A stretch of 58,404 nucleotides of DNA from Pseudomonadota bacterium (GCA_034439715.1 JAWXAY010000052.1:1-58404); one strand, 5' to 3'. Counted from the stretch's first letter, positions 33,001 to 39,000 are shown. A program made the numbers.

Positions 33001-36000
33001 ATCTTCTAAGTCCAAAATGTTTGAGCCATTTCATACAACAAAAAAGCGTGGCACAGGACTGGGATTGGCAGTAACCCACAAAATTTTAGAAATGCATAGT
33101 GCCAAAGTTCGCGTTGAGAGTGAATTGGATAGGGGCACAGTATTTATTATGGAGTTTCCGGCTAATCATCAAATGATGGCTCAGACAAGTACCATTGATA
33201 ATAAATTAAAAATAGAAAACCAAGTTGAAAGCAATATTGCAAAGAAGAAAGTAAAAGGGGTTTAAATATGAAGTCTAAATTATTGGTAGTAGATGACGAA
33301 GAGTCCATACGTGAGTTTCTCGAGATTATGTTAAAAAAAGAGGGATACCAAGTGACTCTTGCCGAAGATGGGCAACAAGCCATCGATCTTTTAAAAGGCA
33401 AAAGCTTTGACATGATTATTTCAGATATGCAGATGCCTCGCGTGACCGGCATCGAGCTTTTAAAGCACGTTAAGGACAACCATCCTGAGATTGTTTTTAT
33501 GATGATCACTGCTTTTGGTACAACTGAATCGGCTGTTGATGCGATGAAAATGGGAGCCTATGACTACATAACCAAGCCCTTTAAAATCGACGAAGTCCGC
33601 ATAAATATTTCTAATGCGTTAAGATCTCAAAATTTAGAAGTTGAAAACCGAGTTCTTAAAAAAGAAATGGAGAAAGAGTATAGTTTTCAAAATTTAGTGG
33701 GTAACTCCGAGGCCATGCATCGTATCTATGACCTCGTAAAGAGAGTTTCTTCCGCTCCGACAAATATCTTAATTACCGGAGAAAGTGGTACGGGTAAGGA
33801 AATGGTGGCAAAAGCCATTCATTTTAATGGCCCGTTAAAAACGAGACCATTTGTCACTATCAATTGTGGTGCCATTCCAGAAGCCCTGATGGAATCAGAA
33901 ATGTTTGGACACAAAAAGGGCTCCTTTACGGGTGCGATCGCCGATAAAGCGGGACTATTTGAAGTAGCTTCTGGAGGCACTTTGTTTTTAGATGAAGTGG
34001 GTGAATTACCGCTTTCGATTCAGGTTAAGCTCTTGCGATCTATTCAAGAGCGCGTAATTAGGCGAGTGGGTGGCATCGAGGATATTAAAGTTGAAGTTCG
34101 AATTATAGCGGCGACCAATAAGGACCTTGATGAAGGAGTAAGATTAAGTACTTTTCGGCAAGATCTCTACTACCGACTAAACGTTATTAATATTAAGACC
34201 CCATCTTTAAGAGAACGACGCGAGGATATTCCAACTTTGGCACATCACTTTCTTAAAAAGTATTGTGATAAATTAGGTAAGGTGGTTCATGGTATTTCTC
34301 ATGAAGCCATGGAGATATTAAAAAAATATGATTATCCTGGAAATGTCAGAGAGTTAGAAAATCTTTTAGAGAGGACAGTGGCACTTGAGGCGGGAGCTGA
34401 GGTTTTGCCTGAAAGTCTGCCACCGTATGTAAACACGCCTTCGGGACGCAAAATGGCTTCAAGTCACGAAATAGAAGTCACCGAAGAAGGTCTCGATCTC
34501 GATAAGGTTATGGGCCAAATTGAAAAAGAATTATTGGTAAAAGCGATTCACACCGCCGGTGGAATCAAAAAGAAGGGTGCTAAACTTTTAGGTATTACCT
34601 TTCGGTCTATGCGTTACCGAGTTGAGAAATATGGCTTAGGCATCATAACTGATGATGAATTAGACGATGAATAACTTGCATTTTCATTTAACTTTGCTAA
34701 AAATTGTGGCTTAAGAATTGACCACGTAGCTCAGTTGGATAGAGCACTAGTTTCCTAAACTGGGGGTCGCAGGTTCGATCCCTGCCGTGGTCACCAATTG
34801 CAACAGAATTCGAACCATGACCCGTAAAAAAATGTGGGGCACGGTTTTTACCCGTGCCCACATAGTAAAATAAGTTAATTTTGTCCTCATGCAGTTCCAC
34901 TTTGTGCAGTAAATTTTGAAGGACGCGAACCCTGGTTTCAGCGCTTTCGCGCTCTGACAGAGCTTTGAGGCCCTTTAGAAAGCTTGTGTAGCCCTTAAAT
35001 TCATTCGGTAAATCTTGGGCTTGATTAGACTCCATAAAGTGCCGCTGATCATGTAGTGCATCTTTATCGTGTTCTAATTTTTGTATCTGACGATAAAATA
35101 AATCAGCCGATACGTCCTTTGGCAAATCACTAATTCGATCGATCAGATTATCCATTTTTTCTTGAACAGTACGCAATCGTTTCTCGATTTGCTTAAGCTC
35201 AAAGCTTTTGTCGATTTTCTTAAAATTTCGGTGAGCGATATCAATTAAATTTCTCGCCATTTTAGGATCAGTTAAAAGTTTCTTTATCTCGGCCCACACC
35301 ATGTCTTCCAGTTTTTTACCTGGAAATCTATGCCGAATACATTTTTTCACCTCACCCAACACAGTTTGGTGTTTAGAGACTGTTCCGTGCTCGTAATAAG
35401 GCACCTTGCCGCCGTTACCCGTGGCCGACTTACCCCAAAGTGACCCACCACACTCACCGCAATAAACAAGGCCCGTGAGTAAATACGGGTAACGGTTGTA
35501 TTGGCTCCTTCGATTCCGCCGATAATTTTTACCCAGAATTTCACGAGCCCGTTTAAAAGTTTCCTCATCGATAATCCCATCCCAAACGGCTTTGGTGTCG
35601 ATCTCATTGTCGTCTTTATCTTGGTAGGTTTTTAAGCCCAAATAAGCACGATTTCTTAAAATTCTGTACACGCCATCGAAAGTGAAAAACCCCAAACGTT
35701 TATTGCTGCCCCCACCTTCACATTCCTTTTTAATTACAAAACCACGGCTATTTAAAACTTTGGCGGTTTTTGACAAAGTTCTTTCTTTTAGAAATGTTTG
35801 AAAACATTCTTTCACCAAAGCTGCACCATCAGGATCAACTTCTAAATATCCGCGCTTACCAGCCATTAGCCTGTAACCCAGCGGCACACGACCGCCATTA
35901 TATAACCCACGCTGAGAGCGGGCTAAAATTGCAGCTTTAATCCGCTGTACAGTTTGCTTTCGCTCAAACTGCGCCATATTCACTAAATTAAACATCAGCA

Positions 36001-39000
36001 TTTCACCAGCGGGACTTGTGGTATCGAACGATTCATTCAGACTCTGGAACGCGCATTTTAGTTTTTGCATCAGATCCCAAATATCTGAAAAGTCTTTTAT
36101 TGACCTAGATAACCTTGAAAGTTCTGTCACCATCACAAGATTTACTTTTTTGCTTTTAATGTCGCCGAGTAACCGTTGCAGCTCAGGCCTATTGGTATCT
36201 TTACCGGATCTTGCTCGGTCAACATAAACGCCTGCGACCTCATATTGACGGCCCTCTTCATTTTTATGATTAACCCAGCGCTTCAAGCGCTCCTCTTGGT
36301 TTTTGATGGACCCCTCAGGGTTATCAGCTTGTTCTTCTGTTGATACTCTGATGTAAAAGCCCACTTTAAATTTCGACATAACTATGCCGCCCTTTCTGTT
36401 TTGGTTGAAAGGCTCGAGTTATTTAATCTATCCGCGGGATTTACTTTTTTGAACTGGCAAAAGTATTTATATAAAATTCGCGCGATGATCTCAAGCCTTT
36501 CATCATATTCGTTTGCGTTAACTTCAATTTTATAAATTTCTATTTTTTCTACTTTAAATTTTTTTGGCATATTCGTTTTCTCCTCTACAAGTTTCGATTT
36601 CAGGTTCCGGTCCTATTAAGTCACAGTTCGCCGTTTTTAATTTTCTTCATAAGTTATAGTTTTGATTTATATTTTCTAAATTGCGTTTGTTCAGTAACTC
36701 CTCTTGTGTGTGATAAAGTTATACCTATGTTGGTAGGGTAGTTATATCTTGGTTGGTACGGTGGTTCTTGGGGTGGGTAATAGGTTTTGTGATCAAGCCC
36801 CGCGTGGCCCTATTAAGTCACGTCGGGAAGTTCGATCAAGTATTTTTAAGTTTATGATTTCATTTGTGATTGTCGACGCTGCAATTATTCAGCAATTCGT
36901 AAGATTCGGAGAGTATTGTGGGCATATTGCTACAATATTGCGGTCACATTGCTACGTTGTTCTTGCTACCGGCCAGGGCATTGAAGAACTGAACTAAATT
37001 ACGCCACATCAATTTTAAAATGCGCATTGGGAAAAAGCTCACTTAAATATTTCACTAAGCGATCAAGCGTGAACTCTTCGATGTTGTAATTTAACACTTT
37101 ACTCATCAAAGCTTCATCAATGCCAATTTTTTTTGCCAACTCTTTTTGGCTAATGGCATTTTCGTTTTTATAAACAACGAACCTCTCACAAAGTTTGTAT
37201 TTCATTTCATCAACAGGGCTTGCGTCTTTCGGCAGAAGTCTAGCGGCTTGTCCGTGATCTAGTCTTTTTCTGACCTCATCCAATTTTTCTTTCGACGGAA
37301 ATTTTGCCATAAATTTTTACCTCTTAACTCTAAACGCGTTAATCACACCTAAAAAATCATCCGTAATACAAATAAGCAGCACGAGTCGATAGGGTTTATC
37401 GTCGTGATAGACAGGCTCAACCCTAAAGTAACGGAACTCACCATCGATCTCTTCAACCGGGAAACTGCCACCATCTAGTTCTTTACAAGCTCTAGGATAA
37501 TCTCGTCGGTTAAGTCGGGGTGTTTGATCTTATAATGCTGATCAATGATTACCCGGTTTACGTCCTGCCTATTAACAACCAACTGAAGTTTATACTCAGG
37601 CCGCTCACCTATGCAATGAGTCTATCATTAAATTGACGAATTTGTCAATTTAGAAGTTAAACCTATTCCTTGGGTCTTTTTTGCCAGTCCAAAAGGTCAC
37701 AATCTTTGGCAATTTAACGCCCAAGGTTTTCACCTCGCGTTTAGGGGCGAAAAAAATTATTCCCCTCATAATAGTCAAAACAATAAGTCCCAGATTCGTC
37801 ATATCGCATTTGAGTAATTTACCAACTAAAATGATAGTTCAAAAATAGTGAGTATGTTTCATCGCTTATAAGAATAAAAAATTTATTTTCAGTACGAGTT
37901 TTCGCGGGAGTTTTTTAGTAATATTTAATTACTGCTATCACCACTCAGCGCCTTCATGAACAACAAATAAATTAGAAAAGCCAGCATGTCGCAAATCATC
38001 TTGGCTAGATGCGCACGACAGACGAGTGTTTGGTAGCGCGGAAGAAGAATATTGTGGCCAGACTGAATTTCCATCTGACCATCTTTGCGAACCGATATTA
38101 TTTCTTGAGGAGATTTTGAATATTCCTCATACAAAAGTTTCTGCTTTCGTTTAAGTCCATTTTTTTTAGGTTACACCAATCTCTAAATGAAAAGCTCACG
38201 TTAGACTCGCTGCCAACGGCCACCCAGCTTGCCTCTCTATAGGCTTCGTTCAGCGCCTCCCAAGCCTGCAATGCAGGTCCAATGTCCGTGATCGGGCCAT
38301 TACAATTTTTAAAAAAGAGATCTTGAGCATCATTAATTTTCTTTTCGATAGGAGCTTTCGCTTGTTCTTCTCTCTTAATGGACGAGAACGTTTGATAATT
38401 TCCAAATCCATATTTGGATACTTTACTGCTGAAAGCCATTTCTTCTAAATCGCCTACTGCAGTCAAAACCCGCTTCAACCCTCGAACACTTGCGGGCGGA
38501 ATTAAATCTTCAGTTTTGCGTTCCTTATTTAGTAGTAGCCGTCTGCCCTGAACGAGTTCGTGAAGAATTAGCTGGTCCTTAGCTACAACTTTAAATTTTG
38601 CTTCTTCAATAAAAATATCATTATCATCCTGACAAGCGCCAGCTGCTGTTTCAACTTGAATATGGCTTTTTGGATCCTCGCAAAGAATTTCGAAAGGTAC
38701 CAAGTGCCATGTCTTTTCTGCGAGAGGTACGCGGAGATCTTTTGCCAACTCTGGCAATTTTTGTTCAATTTGAATTAGTATTTCCTCTACAGATTTAAAA
38801 AAGCCTTCTTTTTCTGGATGGATTATTTTTCCCTGCTCCAGATCATCTATCAAAATCCAGTGACCGTTTACCTTGCCGTAGAAACCGCCACCAGGACCAG
38901 TTCCTCCCGCGAAGGCAAAATGGGGCGCCACTGTCAAAGTGATCGCCAGAAAGATTTGTTTCAAATTCAATAAGGCTTTCATAAAAACTCCTAAGTTATG

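Follow-up and report, generated by a model that had tools for sequence, protein, structure and literature searches.

The window, that is, the whole 58,404-nt stretch of DNA analysed here (contig C52 of a predatory bacterium), contains a gene for a large serine recombinase (LSR) whose reading frame runs antisense across an entire tRNA gene, tRNA-Arg(CCU), with an overlap of 100 nt (Table 1). This overlap had been reported in the first-pass annotation and was recovered from the coordinates of both genes. The encoded protein combines the Pfam families Resolvase, Recombinase, and Zn_ribbon_recom. The Resolvase catalytic domain spans residues 8-158 (PF00239, E=3.5e-33), and the Recombinase domain (PF07508, E=1.4e-13) and zinc beta-ribbon (PF13408, E=6.2e-11) are matched as well. 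The catalytic-motif residues are present, with R11, V12, and S13 invariant in an alignment of 47 sequences (alignment A1). A phiRSM-type small serine recombinase, about 200 residues long and devoid of a Recombinase domain, is ruled out by the length of 560 residues and by the Recombinase and zinc-ribbon domains. A tyrosine-integrase tRNA island is likewise ruled out at this locus, given that none of the genome's 14 matches to PF00589 lies on the contig and that the tRNA is not repeated over tens of base pairs.

The boundaries of the island were defined by comparison with its closest relative, an element in the genome G003. Homology between the two elements starts and stops at the hexanucleotide CACCAA, at both ends and in both genomes, which places the island at 34792-41334 of the window (6,537 bp core to core). 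Nucleotide identity is 68% in the LSR gene, 81% in the HTH block, and 84% in the right-end block (40858-41340). CACCAA flanks the island on both sides, the left copy representing the discriminator-CCA end of tRNA-Arg(CCU), which is single-copy among the 43 tRNA and tmRNA genes of the genome. The direct repeat at the far end consists of this hexamer only, or of 7 nt identical between attL and attR when the preceding T is counted.

Within these boundaries, a 62-residue ORF abuts the start of the LSR gene. It belongs to a BLAST-linked cluster that accounts for 38 among the 61 loci having such an ORF and has no match in Pfam, PHROG, or PADLOC; it may encode an accessory protein or a directionality factor. 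A segment of putative cargo (38098-40832) separates the left-hand genes from Orf2, a small protein with weak Sigma70_r4/HTH_23 matches. Homologues of Orf2 occur at the far ends of four surveyed elements (L043, L063, L078, and L107) and in the tail of protein P0005, and Orf2 and the 62-residue ORF together are the candidate accessory genes of the LSR. The terminator-like hairpin to the right of attR is read as the original tRNA-Arg terminator, displaced by the insertion.

Table 1. Features of the island and its flanks (window coordinates)
Feature	Position	Strand	Remarks
LSR ORF, 560 aa	34697-36379	-	Past ~aa 508: linker, hairpin, P' arm; past aa 529: antisense tRNA
tRNA-Arg(CCU), intact; target, B arm of attL	34720-34796	+	ARAGORN; Rfam RF00005, 67.5 bits
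attL common core CACCAA	34792-34797	.	tRNA nt 72-76 plus 1 nt; G003 homology begins here
P' arm of attP, within LSR ORF	34797-34816	-	Encodes GSNSVAIG (aa 522-529)
Terminator-like hairpin (8 pairs, 7 G-C) and T-run, inside LSR frame	34827-34859	-	
Small conserved ORF, 62 aa, abutting LSR start	36382-36570	-	44% identical to G003 counterpart
HTH regulator (HTH_37 / Cro-C1 type)	36999-37310	-	Block 81% identical in G003 and G002
Cargo ORF, 294 aa, without family	38098-38982	-	
Cargo ORF, DUF4423 protein	39097-39918	+	Paralogues elsewhere in same genome and in related genomes
Cargo ORF, 207 aa, without family	40209-40832	+	
Orf2, small HTH protein, 58 aa from GTG start, just inside P arm	41120-41296	-	LSR direction
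P arm of attP	41304-41328	+	GGTTCG 25 nt left of attR core
attR common core CACCAA, island right end	41329-41334	.	G003 homology stops here
Terminator-like hairpin and T-rich tail, 23 nt beyond attR	41357-41385	+	Hairpin on tRNA strand

Attachment sites and the end of the recombinase gene

The T-arm motif of tRNA-Arg(CCU), GGTTCGA, lies 20 nt to the left of the attL core. An inverted copy of it, GGTTCGAAT, is found in the P' arm, and the GGTTCG of the P arm, which shares in a palindrome at 41289-41309, stands 5 bp further away from its core than does the T-arm motif at attL. Joined, the two arms make up an attP of about 50 bp with inverted-repeat structure. Counted from the tRNA end, attP has GGTTCG at -20 to -15 and CGAACC at +24 to +29, with the centre at +4|+5, compared with CGAACC at +19 to +24 in the T-arm. 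The distal motif is thus offset by 5 bp between attP and attB, but by 4 bp in the type represented by a second element of the genome, on contig C49. An offset of 5 bp between the ZD motifs of attP and attB is also given in the sections of Rutherford et al. 2013 (PMC3783163) drawn on here, and the present arrangement matches this known LSR geometry. Common cores are short throughout, at 6-7 bp in C52, 9 bp in G003, and 6-10 bp in four other elements. The crossover dinucleotide would correspond to tRNA nt 71-72, and the zinc-ribbon domain probably reads the T-arm motif.

The attP site overlaps the recombinase gene itself, and no stop codon interrupts the LSR frame ahead of the core. The 20 nt preceding the tRNA end, which form the last seven LSR codons, are conserved in the family at the DNA level, wobble bases included. 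GTTCG is present at -19 to -15 from the tRNA end in 46-54 of 57 loci, and conservation is highest at its wobble bases (T at -18 in 54/57, G at -15 in 50/57), which indicates that the peptide encoded here, GSNxLTNG, is dictated by the DNA. In an in silico circular form the LSR product would be 598 residues long, compared with 560 in the integrated form.

The recombinase family and its target genes

Relatives were collected from 7999 scored candidates, 1136 of which were proteins at E<=1e-30. A pattern search of species-representative genomes gave 599 matches, 562 of them encoding LSR relatives, and the best 80 of these 562, almost all from Bdellovibrionota, were kept. A convergent tRNA (54) or tmRNA (3) gene abuts the conserved block in 57 of these 80 loci, or 57 of the 71 that could be judged, although these counts are not independent events because the loci are related to one another. 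The proportion of one half given in the first-pass annotation was therefore too low. No co-directional tRNA or tmRNA gene occurs at any of the 80 loci. Across the 57 loci, 22 different target genes are used, tmRNA included, and the adjacency is far beyond chance.

In 55 of the 57 loci, the LSR frame reads from its start into the tRNA without a stop, always in the same register, in which the T of the antisense CCA occupies codon position 3; the two control frames run into a stop after a median of 9 and 1 codons. Accordingly, most tails among the top 120 proteins read GSNxLTNG and then continue as antisense-tRNA peptides. CGAAC(C) at +24 marks the far ends identified in the window and in L043, L063, L078, and L107, in elements of 4.0-6.6 kb; within flanks of up to 6 kb, far ends could be located in only four of the 57 foreign loci, with two further doubtful candidates. 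Enzymes that are 91.5% identical reside at tRNA-Phe in one case and at tRNA-Ala in the other, and enzymes 85.9% identical at two different tRNA-Leu genes. Target choice within the family therefore appears relaxed, and the former pair points to recent movement. More generally, the same design probably holds in a large family of Bdellovibrionota LSRs. No tRNA was called in 14 of the judgeable loci among the 80. Some of these show tRNA- or tmRNA-like fragments and some resemble attP; L040 is unexplained.

Exactly three ORFs of 533-606 residues with a Resolvase domain are present in the genome, on C52, C49, and C102. The observation that all three full-length LSRs read into tRNA 3' ends was confirmed. 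Besides the 100-nt overlap in the window, C49:5695-7296(+) overlaps tRNA-Asn(GUU) (c7255-7329) by 42 nt and C102:1028-2755(+) overlaps tRNA-Ala(GGC) (c2744-2819) by 12 nt. A geometry common to all three, as had been proposed, holds for the overlap, but not for C102 in its detail, where the conserved block and the tRNA are 28 nt apart. The far ends had been reported as missing. This no longer applies to C52, with attR at 41329-41334, or to the C49 island, which ends at C10:~17738; it stands for C102, where a far end was looked for and not found. The C10 end is identical to the C49 attL over 13 nt and supplies the other half of a perfect 12-nt inverted repeat with the same centre, and its flank (C10:19432-20183) matches genes near tRNA-Asn in the genome G002 at 92-94% amino acid identity. 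The C49 island, a more distant member of the Bdellovibrionota LSR family, includes an IetAS defence pair (IetS, IetA). At C83:~3278, the P' arm, core, and P arm lie in one piece as an intact attP, behind a split LSR gene and a type VI retron.

A model for integration and alternative readings

These data suggest a model in which a recombination module, ordered 62-residue ORF, LSR, attP, and Orf2, would insert at the extreme 3' end of tRNA-Arg(CCU). Both attP arms would present an inverted GGTTCG about 25 bp from a centre between tRNA nt 71 and 72, the P' arm being formed by the final seven codons of the LSR frame and the P arm by the opening codons of the Orf2-containing frame, and the tRNA T-arm would offer GGTTCG about 20 bp from the same centre. 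The tRNA would stay intact because the element re-supplies the discriminator-CCA end, and its own terminator would end up beyond the right end of the island. The overlap of the LSR ORF with the tRNA would arise because the excised form has its stop codon beyond the crossover; after integration, the frame would continue into antisense tRNA until a chance stop. The reading of 34792-41334 as a 6.5-kb integrative element at the 3' end of the single tRNA-Arg(CCU), with attP embedded in coding sequence, is given a probability of roughly 85%. The first-pass suggestion of an LSR lineage that uses tRNA 3' ends and whose own gene ends in the att site gains support from the island boundaries, the conserved 20-nt block, and the lack of PF00589 on C52.

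A more conservative version of this model, about as probable as its negation, regards the read-through into the tRNA and the link to Orf2 as by-products of a DNA site embedded in coding sequence, functionless in themselves and handed down from a single ancestor, with the functional enzyme ending at about residue 508-529 whether integrated or excised. It is favoured by the wobble conservation and the DNA-dictated peptide and by the variability of the tails beyond P': in 27 of 57 loci the stop lies 22 nt inside the tRNA, elsewhere at any distance up to 259 nt. In addition, the C83 and G003 copies have no in-frame Orf2 link, and L053, an attP-like form, stops 13 codons past the motif. Against it, a variable linker, reaching about 70 codons, joins the last protein motif to the P' arm and is free of stop codons in 55 of 57 loci, when the control medians are 9 and 1. 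Furthermore, the LSR ORF continues in frame into the small HTH gene in all six circles reconstructed in silico, including the C49 type, in which the P' arm and register are shifted by one base and still match the Orf2 frame, and fused ORFs occur naturally (P0005, P0073, L058, and L064).

Alternatively, the island could be a fixed relic that the LSR inserted once and that no longer moves, the ORF extension reflecting loss of the original stop context. Contigs of four runs contain the integrated form only, with no excised circle, empty attB, or joint, and two metagenome contigs with the right flank of the island are both occupied, in line with the earlier statement that no excision had been shown. 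Also compatible with a relic are the 1-nt deletion in the P' arm of the G003 copy and the split LSR on C83. However, contigs cannot show the absence of excised forms because they drop rare variants, the window LSR keeps its three domains and the invariant catalytic-motif residues, both att arms of the island retain their motifs, and the 91.5%-identical enzymes at different tRNAs speak for movement in the family. A relic is considered doubtful, and the C52 enzyme may well still be active.

The internal hairpin, located between the last conserved protein motif (FYYVG, ending at 34856) and the P' arm, precedes any stop codon and is unexplained by the integration model. It could terminate the transcript, in which case the recombinase mRNA would lack a stop codon and tmRNA tagging would hold the protein at a low level, with the downstream frame reached by read-through only. 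This improbable reading draws on the terminator-like character of the site within the ORF (34859 to 34837 on the minus strand, 7 G-C pairs and a T-run), a compensatory change that conserves it in G003, similar hairpins in 24 of 58 loci compared with 4 of 58 control segments, and the presence of a tmRNA gene in the genome. Yet the same scan found no hairpin in 34 of the 58 loci, and the structure may just shield the tRNA gene from antisense transcription.

An incidental adjacency, in which tRNA genes are general island hotspots and the LSR would be either cargo or active at some other site, is already contradicted and hardly credible: although the sequence following tRNA-Arg(CCU) is different in five of five relatives examined, being unrelated to the window in each, and the G003 element sits at a non-tRNA site with the 3' end of a tyrosine-integrase gene as its left flank, the conserved block keeps a fixed distance from the tRNA end at 57 loci and 22 target genes, C52 is without a tyrosine integrase, and the ends of the island fall at the LSR-proximal junction.

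Comparison with known recombination systems

The three domains of the C52 LSR are shared with the phage-type large serine integrases phiC31, Bxb1, A118/LI, and SPbeta SprA. These likewise use an inverted-repeat attP of about 50 bp, with the distal motif 5 bp nearer the centre in the host site, as far as described in the cited sections of PMC3783163. The common core is 6-9 bp here and 5-8 bp at the M. abscessus Int-S sites, all three of which disrupt ORFs according to the relevant part of PMC8092301. Whereas phage-type serine integrases target the interiors of protein genes, the present family uses tRNA and tmRNA 3' ends, its host half-site motif is the universal T-arm, and its attP overlaps the enzyme's own last codons.

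A serine recombinase at a tRNA gene is termed 'rare' in the pertinent passage of Ghinet et al. 2011 (PMC3218068). Reported cases in the excerpts considered are phiRSM at tRNA-Ser and eight Mycobacterium AICE serine recombinases at tRNA-Leu (PMC3218068, PMC4471427), and 27 of 937 tRNA-linked elements in Prochlorococcus carry an LSR, by the account in part of the tycheposon preprint (10.1101/2020.12.28.424599). As these sources describe them in the portions concerned, phiRSM Int differs in being small and of the resolvase/invertase type, with a core of 13 nt, the mycobacterial group by its single tRNA as opposed to 22 target genes including tmRNA, and all three from the present family by its coding-embedded design.

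Insertion at tRNA ends by an LSR family is a habit normal for a different enzyme class. Tyrosine-integrase islands (P4, lambda-like phages, AICEs; Islander class) have the same geometry, with a 3'-side insertion, a convergent adjoining integrase, and a restored tRNA end, but the C52 repeat is 6-7 bp rather than tens of base pairs, and the enzyme family and chemistry are different. Myxococcus phage Mx8 (intP/intX) reportedly carries attP inside its integrase gene. In Mx8-type and SSV-type systems, integration alters the integrase reading frame; as both employ tyrosine recombinases, this is a resemblance only, and here only a C-terminal tail and possibly a fused HTH domain would be exchanged. 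Archaeal integrases of the SSV type are interrupted by an att site within the gene, as stated in the section of PMC5861418 referred to. In mycobacteriophage integration-dependent immunity, as outlined in part of PMC8092301, attP lies in a gene that, on integration, yields a truncated product with a stop near attL; unlike in the LSR system, the split gene there encodes the repressor, and integration is the work of a tyrosine enzyme.

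The recombinase and its relatives

The large serine recombinase ORF of the window encloses tRNA-Arg(CCU) entirely, and this is the only copy of that gene among the 43 tRNA/tmRNA genes of the genome (111 contigs, 3.26 Mb). Resolvase-domain matches number six in the genome, three of which lie within open frames of 533-606 aa (on C52, the contig of the window, at C49:5695-7296, and at C102:1028-2755); these frames each extend over a convergent tRNA from its 3' end, by 100, 42, and 12 nt, respectively. ORFs, ARAGORN and Rfam calls, and Resolvase matches were rechecked, and the coordinates of recombinases and tRNAs in the first-pass annotation proved correct. 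Its reading, namely that a serine-recombinase lineage has adopted tRNA 3' ends as attachment sites, holds, and the finding is real. No tyrosine recombinase was found on contig C52.

Features of the recombinase islands and their surroundings (contig C52 unless another contig is named)
Feature	Position	Strand	Basis or remark
Large serine recombinase ORF, 560 aa	34697..36379	-	Resolvase, Recombinase, and Zn_ribbon_recom domains
tRNA-Arg(CCU), single tRNA of the window	34720-34796	+	ARAGORN and Rfam
CACCAA, left copy	34792-34797		tRNA nt 72-76 plus 1 base
CACCAA, right copy	41329-34		6,537 bp from left copy
Orf2, small HTH gene directly inside the P arm	41120..41296	-	
S1/P1 nuclease ORF	43404..44429	-	Pfam E=4.6e-59
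IetS (822 aa, peptidase S8) and IetA (327 aa, AAA)	C10:13723-17190 (locus L112)		E=4.9e-36 and 1.2e-75
Split recombinase (Recombinase and zinc ribbon)	C83:3263..4525	-	
Type VI retron beside predicted attP of C83	C83:460-2008 (locus L024)		RT_VI E=1.5e-73, HTH_VI E=6.3e-27

A protein search in which 7999 candidates were scored returned at least 1136 relatives of the window recombinase at E<=1e-30. The top 120 are 41-68% identical, those that are named belong to Bdellovibrionales or Bacteriovoracia, and most of their C-termini carry the peptide GSNxLTNG followed by antisense-tRNA peptides (RTRTxD, LYPTELR, and similar). Viral contigs held a single distant relative and therefore gave no sign of a mainly phage-borne family. 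A single-protein query against genome contigs produced no matches, and an alignment of 47 proteins was required to recover loci; applied to one genome per species, it yielded 599 pattern matches, 562 of which encode relatives. The best 80 of these 562 loci, nearly all from Bdellovibrionota lineages by title, were analyzed. In 57 of these best 80 of 562, ARAGORN called a convergent gene at the ORF end, a tRNA in 54 and a tmRNA in 3; a co-directional one was called in none of the 80. Because the loci are related to each other, these counts exceed the independent support that they carry. The targets comprise 21 tRNA anticodon species and tmRNA, and these 22 targets, together with changes of target between close relatives, argue against descent from a single inherited insertion. 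Target choice is loose, in that recombinases 91.5% identical stand at tRNA-Phe and at tRNA-Ala, with the same antisense hexamer opening both junctions.

In 55 of the 57 loci, the recombinase frame is open from its start into the tRNA, in the register that puts the T of antisense CCA at codon position 3; with the tRNA end as anchor, the median open length of the other two frames is 9 and 1 codons (57 loci). The stop lies 22 nt inside the tRNA in 27 of the 57 loci and 58 nt inside it in 8. The remaining 23 of the 80 divide into 9 that are unjudgeable (contig end within 330 nt, or C-terminal part missing) and 14 that are judgeable. By our reading, loci L039, L045, L071, L097, and L102 would hold tRNA- or tmRNA-like 3' fragments uncalled by ARAGORN, while L053 and L061 resemble attP sites and L064 and L074 do so more weakly. 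The 14 judgeable loci without a called tRNA include L032, the site in the related genome G003, and L040, which is unexplained.

Boundaries and symmetry of the attachment sites

The order of a regulator followed by tRNA-Arg(CCU) is kept across the order, and no synteny matching the window was found 3' of the tRNA in five relatives (G001, G002, G003, G028, and G036). A 20-kb DNA query against 12 relatives identified a related element on contig C22 of G003. Its recombinase shares 68% nucleotide identity with that of the window, and the window's HTH block at 36999-37718 and the block at 40858-41340 match it at 81% and 84% identity. Alignment of the ends shows that CACCAA bounds the homology between the window and G003 at either end in both genomes; core genes syntenic with the family's genomes resume at ~45800. 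A terminator-like hairpin with a T-rich tail, on the tRNA strand and 23 nt right of the right CACCAA, can be read as the terminator of tRNA-Arg itself, putatively displaced by the insertion. The G003 element measures 14,190 bp and has the same core, but it does not stand at a tRNA; the end of a tyrosine-integrase gene forms its left flank, and 1 base is missing from its P' arm (the attP arm in the last recombinase codons).

PADLOC and PHROGs assigned no families or systems to the cargo on C52 beyond HTH matches. A DUF4423 gene within the island (39097..39918, plus strand) has DNA-level paralogues at multiple sites, in the same genome (C36) and in G001, G002, and G003, and is a multi-copy family in the lineage. 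On contig C55 of G002 (locus L019), a block at 7167-7995 begins ~70 nt after tRNA-Ala(GGC) and shares 81% identity with window 36999-37680, where the HTH gene lies; no large serine recombinase stands between the tRNA and the block, which may be a remnant that lacks the recombinase or an element arranged in another way.

Across the 57 junctions, conservation at the DNA level covers the 20 nt ahead of the tRNA end. Counted from the tRNA end, with minus on the recombinase side, GTTCG occupies -19 to -15 in 46-54 of the 57, with AATA and a stretch resembling TTGACAAA after it. The best-kept in-frame bases are the wobble positions of the Gly (54/57) and Ser (50/57) codons, which indicates that the GSNxLTNG peptide is a by-product of a DNA site. 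The T-arm is present in every tRNA at a fixed distance from the end; it lies at +18 to +24 in the tRNA, and the P' motif is an inverted copy of it. Far ends were searched for upstream of the recombinase as the terminal 6 nt of the tRNA followed by CGAAC, and were recovered for the right end of the window element and for L043, L063, L078, and L107, with the motif at +24 in all and elements of 4.0-6.6 kb. Two further candidates are doubtful: L042, with a spacing of 25 and an unrelated ORF out of frame, and L105, with a spacing of 18.

The P'-arm motif and the far-end motif at +24 together give attP a center of symmetry between +4 and +5, corresponding to tRNA nt 72 and 71. GGTTCG lies ~25 bp from this center on both arms, and the T-arm motif ~20 bp from it. 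A passage of Rutherford et al. 2013 (PMC3783163) places the ZD motif at attP half-site positions 16-24 and 5 bp nearer the center in attB, and by analogy the att geometry of the family would be that of the ZD motif. The copying of the T-arm by the conserved distal att motif suggests how the family may target tRNAs: since this motif stands at a fixed distance in every tRNA, few 3'-terminal bases would suffice for tRNA choice, and one enzyme may serve any tRNAs with a 3' hexamer in common, the remainder of the host half-site being the universal T-arm.

Part of the P arm, the far-end arm of attP (41304..41328), belongs to a 21-nt palindrome at 41289-41309 (CGAACC, 9 nt, GGTTCG). The palindrome contributes a second inverted copy of the motif on the outer side, is also kept in G003, and may serve for accessory binding. 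In the junction alignment, the conserved inner part of the P' arm (-8 to -3) reads TTGACA, the -35 consensus, directed across the crossover, and it could contribute to an Orf2 promoter in the circular form.

Other islands of the genome and the search for free forms

On C49, the P' arm is a variant shifted by one base, with GGTTGC. A genome scan located 13 nt identical to the C49 attL at C10:~17738 (minus strand), which form a 12-nt perfect inverted repeat with the C49 P' arm about the same center, and the adjoining C10 flank (19432-20183) shows 92-94% amino acid identity to genes near tRNA-Asn in G002. The far end and the flank match thus delimit one island of at least 25 kb, made up of C10:17738 to C10:1 and C49:1-7254 on either side of an assembly gap, which is marked by an IS-like repeat. 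This tRNA-Asn island carries the IetS/IetA defense pair just within its far end, amid ordinary-looking genes. An identical repeat of ~98 nt occurs at six contig ends (C10:1-99, C3:1-99, C32:2-98, C76:1-96, C80:2-99, and C80:103763-103859) and probably represents the end of an insertion sequence at which the assembly breaks, also within the C49/C10 island.

Behind the split recombinase of C83, the P' arm, core, and P arm are contiguous at ~3278; judged by its sequence, this is an intact attP. The C83 contig (8,980 bp) showed no terminal overlap. The C102 recombinase is ~51% identical to three foreign recombinases, each at tRNA-Ala(GGC), and 28 nt separate the end of its canonical P' block from the tRNA. 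Genome scans for the core with mirrored motifs gave many weak matches and no C102 far end; the best candidate, C76:5761, was rejected, as it lies inside a long ORF without an Orf2-like gene behind it.

No joints on 34300-41800 were found in Logan contigs of four runs (X1, X8, X9, and X10), which hold the integrated form only and, being contigs, cannot reveal rare forms. An empty site was found neither in the five relatives, where the sequence 3' of tRNA-Arg(CCU) is unlike the window, nor in metagenomes, where a 30-nt right-flank query returned two contigs, each identical with the window in its occupied form. A circle of the window element was not found in the contigs of the four runs, the two metagenome contigs, or the relatives, and synteny beyond the 3' end of tRNA-Asn, checked in G002 and G003, revealed no simple empty site. 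The activity of the element, the position of the crossover, and the roles of the accessory ORFs are inferred.

A possible switch and its context

Orf2 has homologues at the far ends of four loci (L043, L063, L078, and L107), and a further one lies within the tail of the 658-aa protein P0005; C10, C83, and the tail of the 760-aa protein P0073 carry a longer HTH-plus-Recombinase-like form. In the window, the recombinase frame stays open into Orf2 when read over the predicted circle junction, giving a protein of 598 aa in silico; natural attP forms measure 650-760 aa. The in-frame link recurs in six of six in-silico circles (window, L043, L063, L078, L107, and C49 plus C10; by frame arithmetic outside the window). 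As a universal rule the fusion was rejected, with G003 and C83 as exceptions. A conserved 62-aa ORF adjoins the recombinase start, and a terminator-like hairpin with a T-run precedes the P' arm within the recombinase ORF, in the window and in 24 of 58 loci versus 4 of 58 control segments.

A simple model does without the Orf2 link, the 62-aa ORF, the hairpin within the ORF, and the loose target choice. Tentatively, at a probability of roughly one in three, the recombinase is a gene cut and rejoined by its own recombination as a directionality switch. In the excised circle, its frame would read through attP into the far-end HTH gene to produce one longer protein. Integration would remove the C-terminal HTH domain, add a short antisense-tRNA tail, and strand the HTH gene at the far end without a promoter. 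The long and short forms would differ in activity or direction, the free or integrated state would set the reaction favored by the enzyme, and the terminator within the ORF would set the ratio of the two forms. If functional, an attP embedded in coding sequence with a second gene in frame would be a new coupling of element state to enzyme form.

In textbooks and surveys, tRNA 3' ends are the usual targets of tyrosine integrases, and protein genes those of serine integrases. In Mx8, the att site lies inside the integrase gene. A passage of Ghinet et al. 2011 (PMC3218068) calls serine-recombinase insertion into tRNA genes 'rare', cites phiRSM1, and describes eight Mycobacterium AICE recombinases at one tRNA-Leu; phiRSM Int is of the resolvase/invertase type, with 13 nt of tRNA-Ser as its site of action (PMC4471427). 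Excerpts from further studies report a tyrosine recombinase in 910 of 937 tRNA-linked elements of Prochlorococcus, with a large serine recombinase in the rest (preprint 10.1101/2020.12.28.424599), M. abscessus Int-S sites inside ORFs in 3 of 3 cases with cores of 5-8 bp and Int-Y sites overlapping tRNA genes in 10 of 15 (PMC8092301), and att sites inside the integrase gene for SSV-type tyrosine integrases (PMC5861418). No published description of the present family was found in full-text literature; the TIGER/Islander database, whose announcement assigns 33.8% of islands to tRNA/tmRNA genes and does not break this figure down by type of enzyme, may already include islands of this kind. The novelty lies in a large serine-integrase family specialized on tRNA/tmRNA 3' ends, with a T-arm-mimicking attP in its own coding sequence. 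Insertion at tRNAs by a serine recombinase, 'rare' elsewhere, is the rule in this Bdellovibrionota family. It offers a testable case of a serine integrase gaining many safe landing sites and a possible source of small integrases (~510-530 aa core) with predictable, conserved targets for use in bacteria, and its 4-25-kb islands are carriers of defense systems (IetAS, type VI retron) in predatory bacteria.

Two observations concern the window outside the island. A purine riboswitch aptamer (Rfam RF00167, 58 bits) at 44377-44473 on the minus strand lies over the start of the S1/P1 nuclease gene, an unusual pairing that would link nucleic-acid scavenging with purine level. At 46500-48000, G+C rises to 0.51-0.54 versus ~0.40-0.44 in the surroundings, covering the ends of two coding regions, namely a 595-aa ORF that carries a chitin-binding-type repeat, and a DEAD-box helicase gene.
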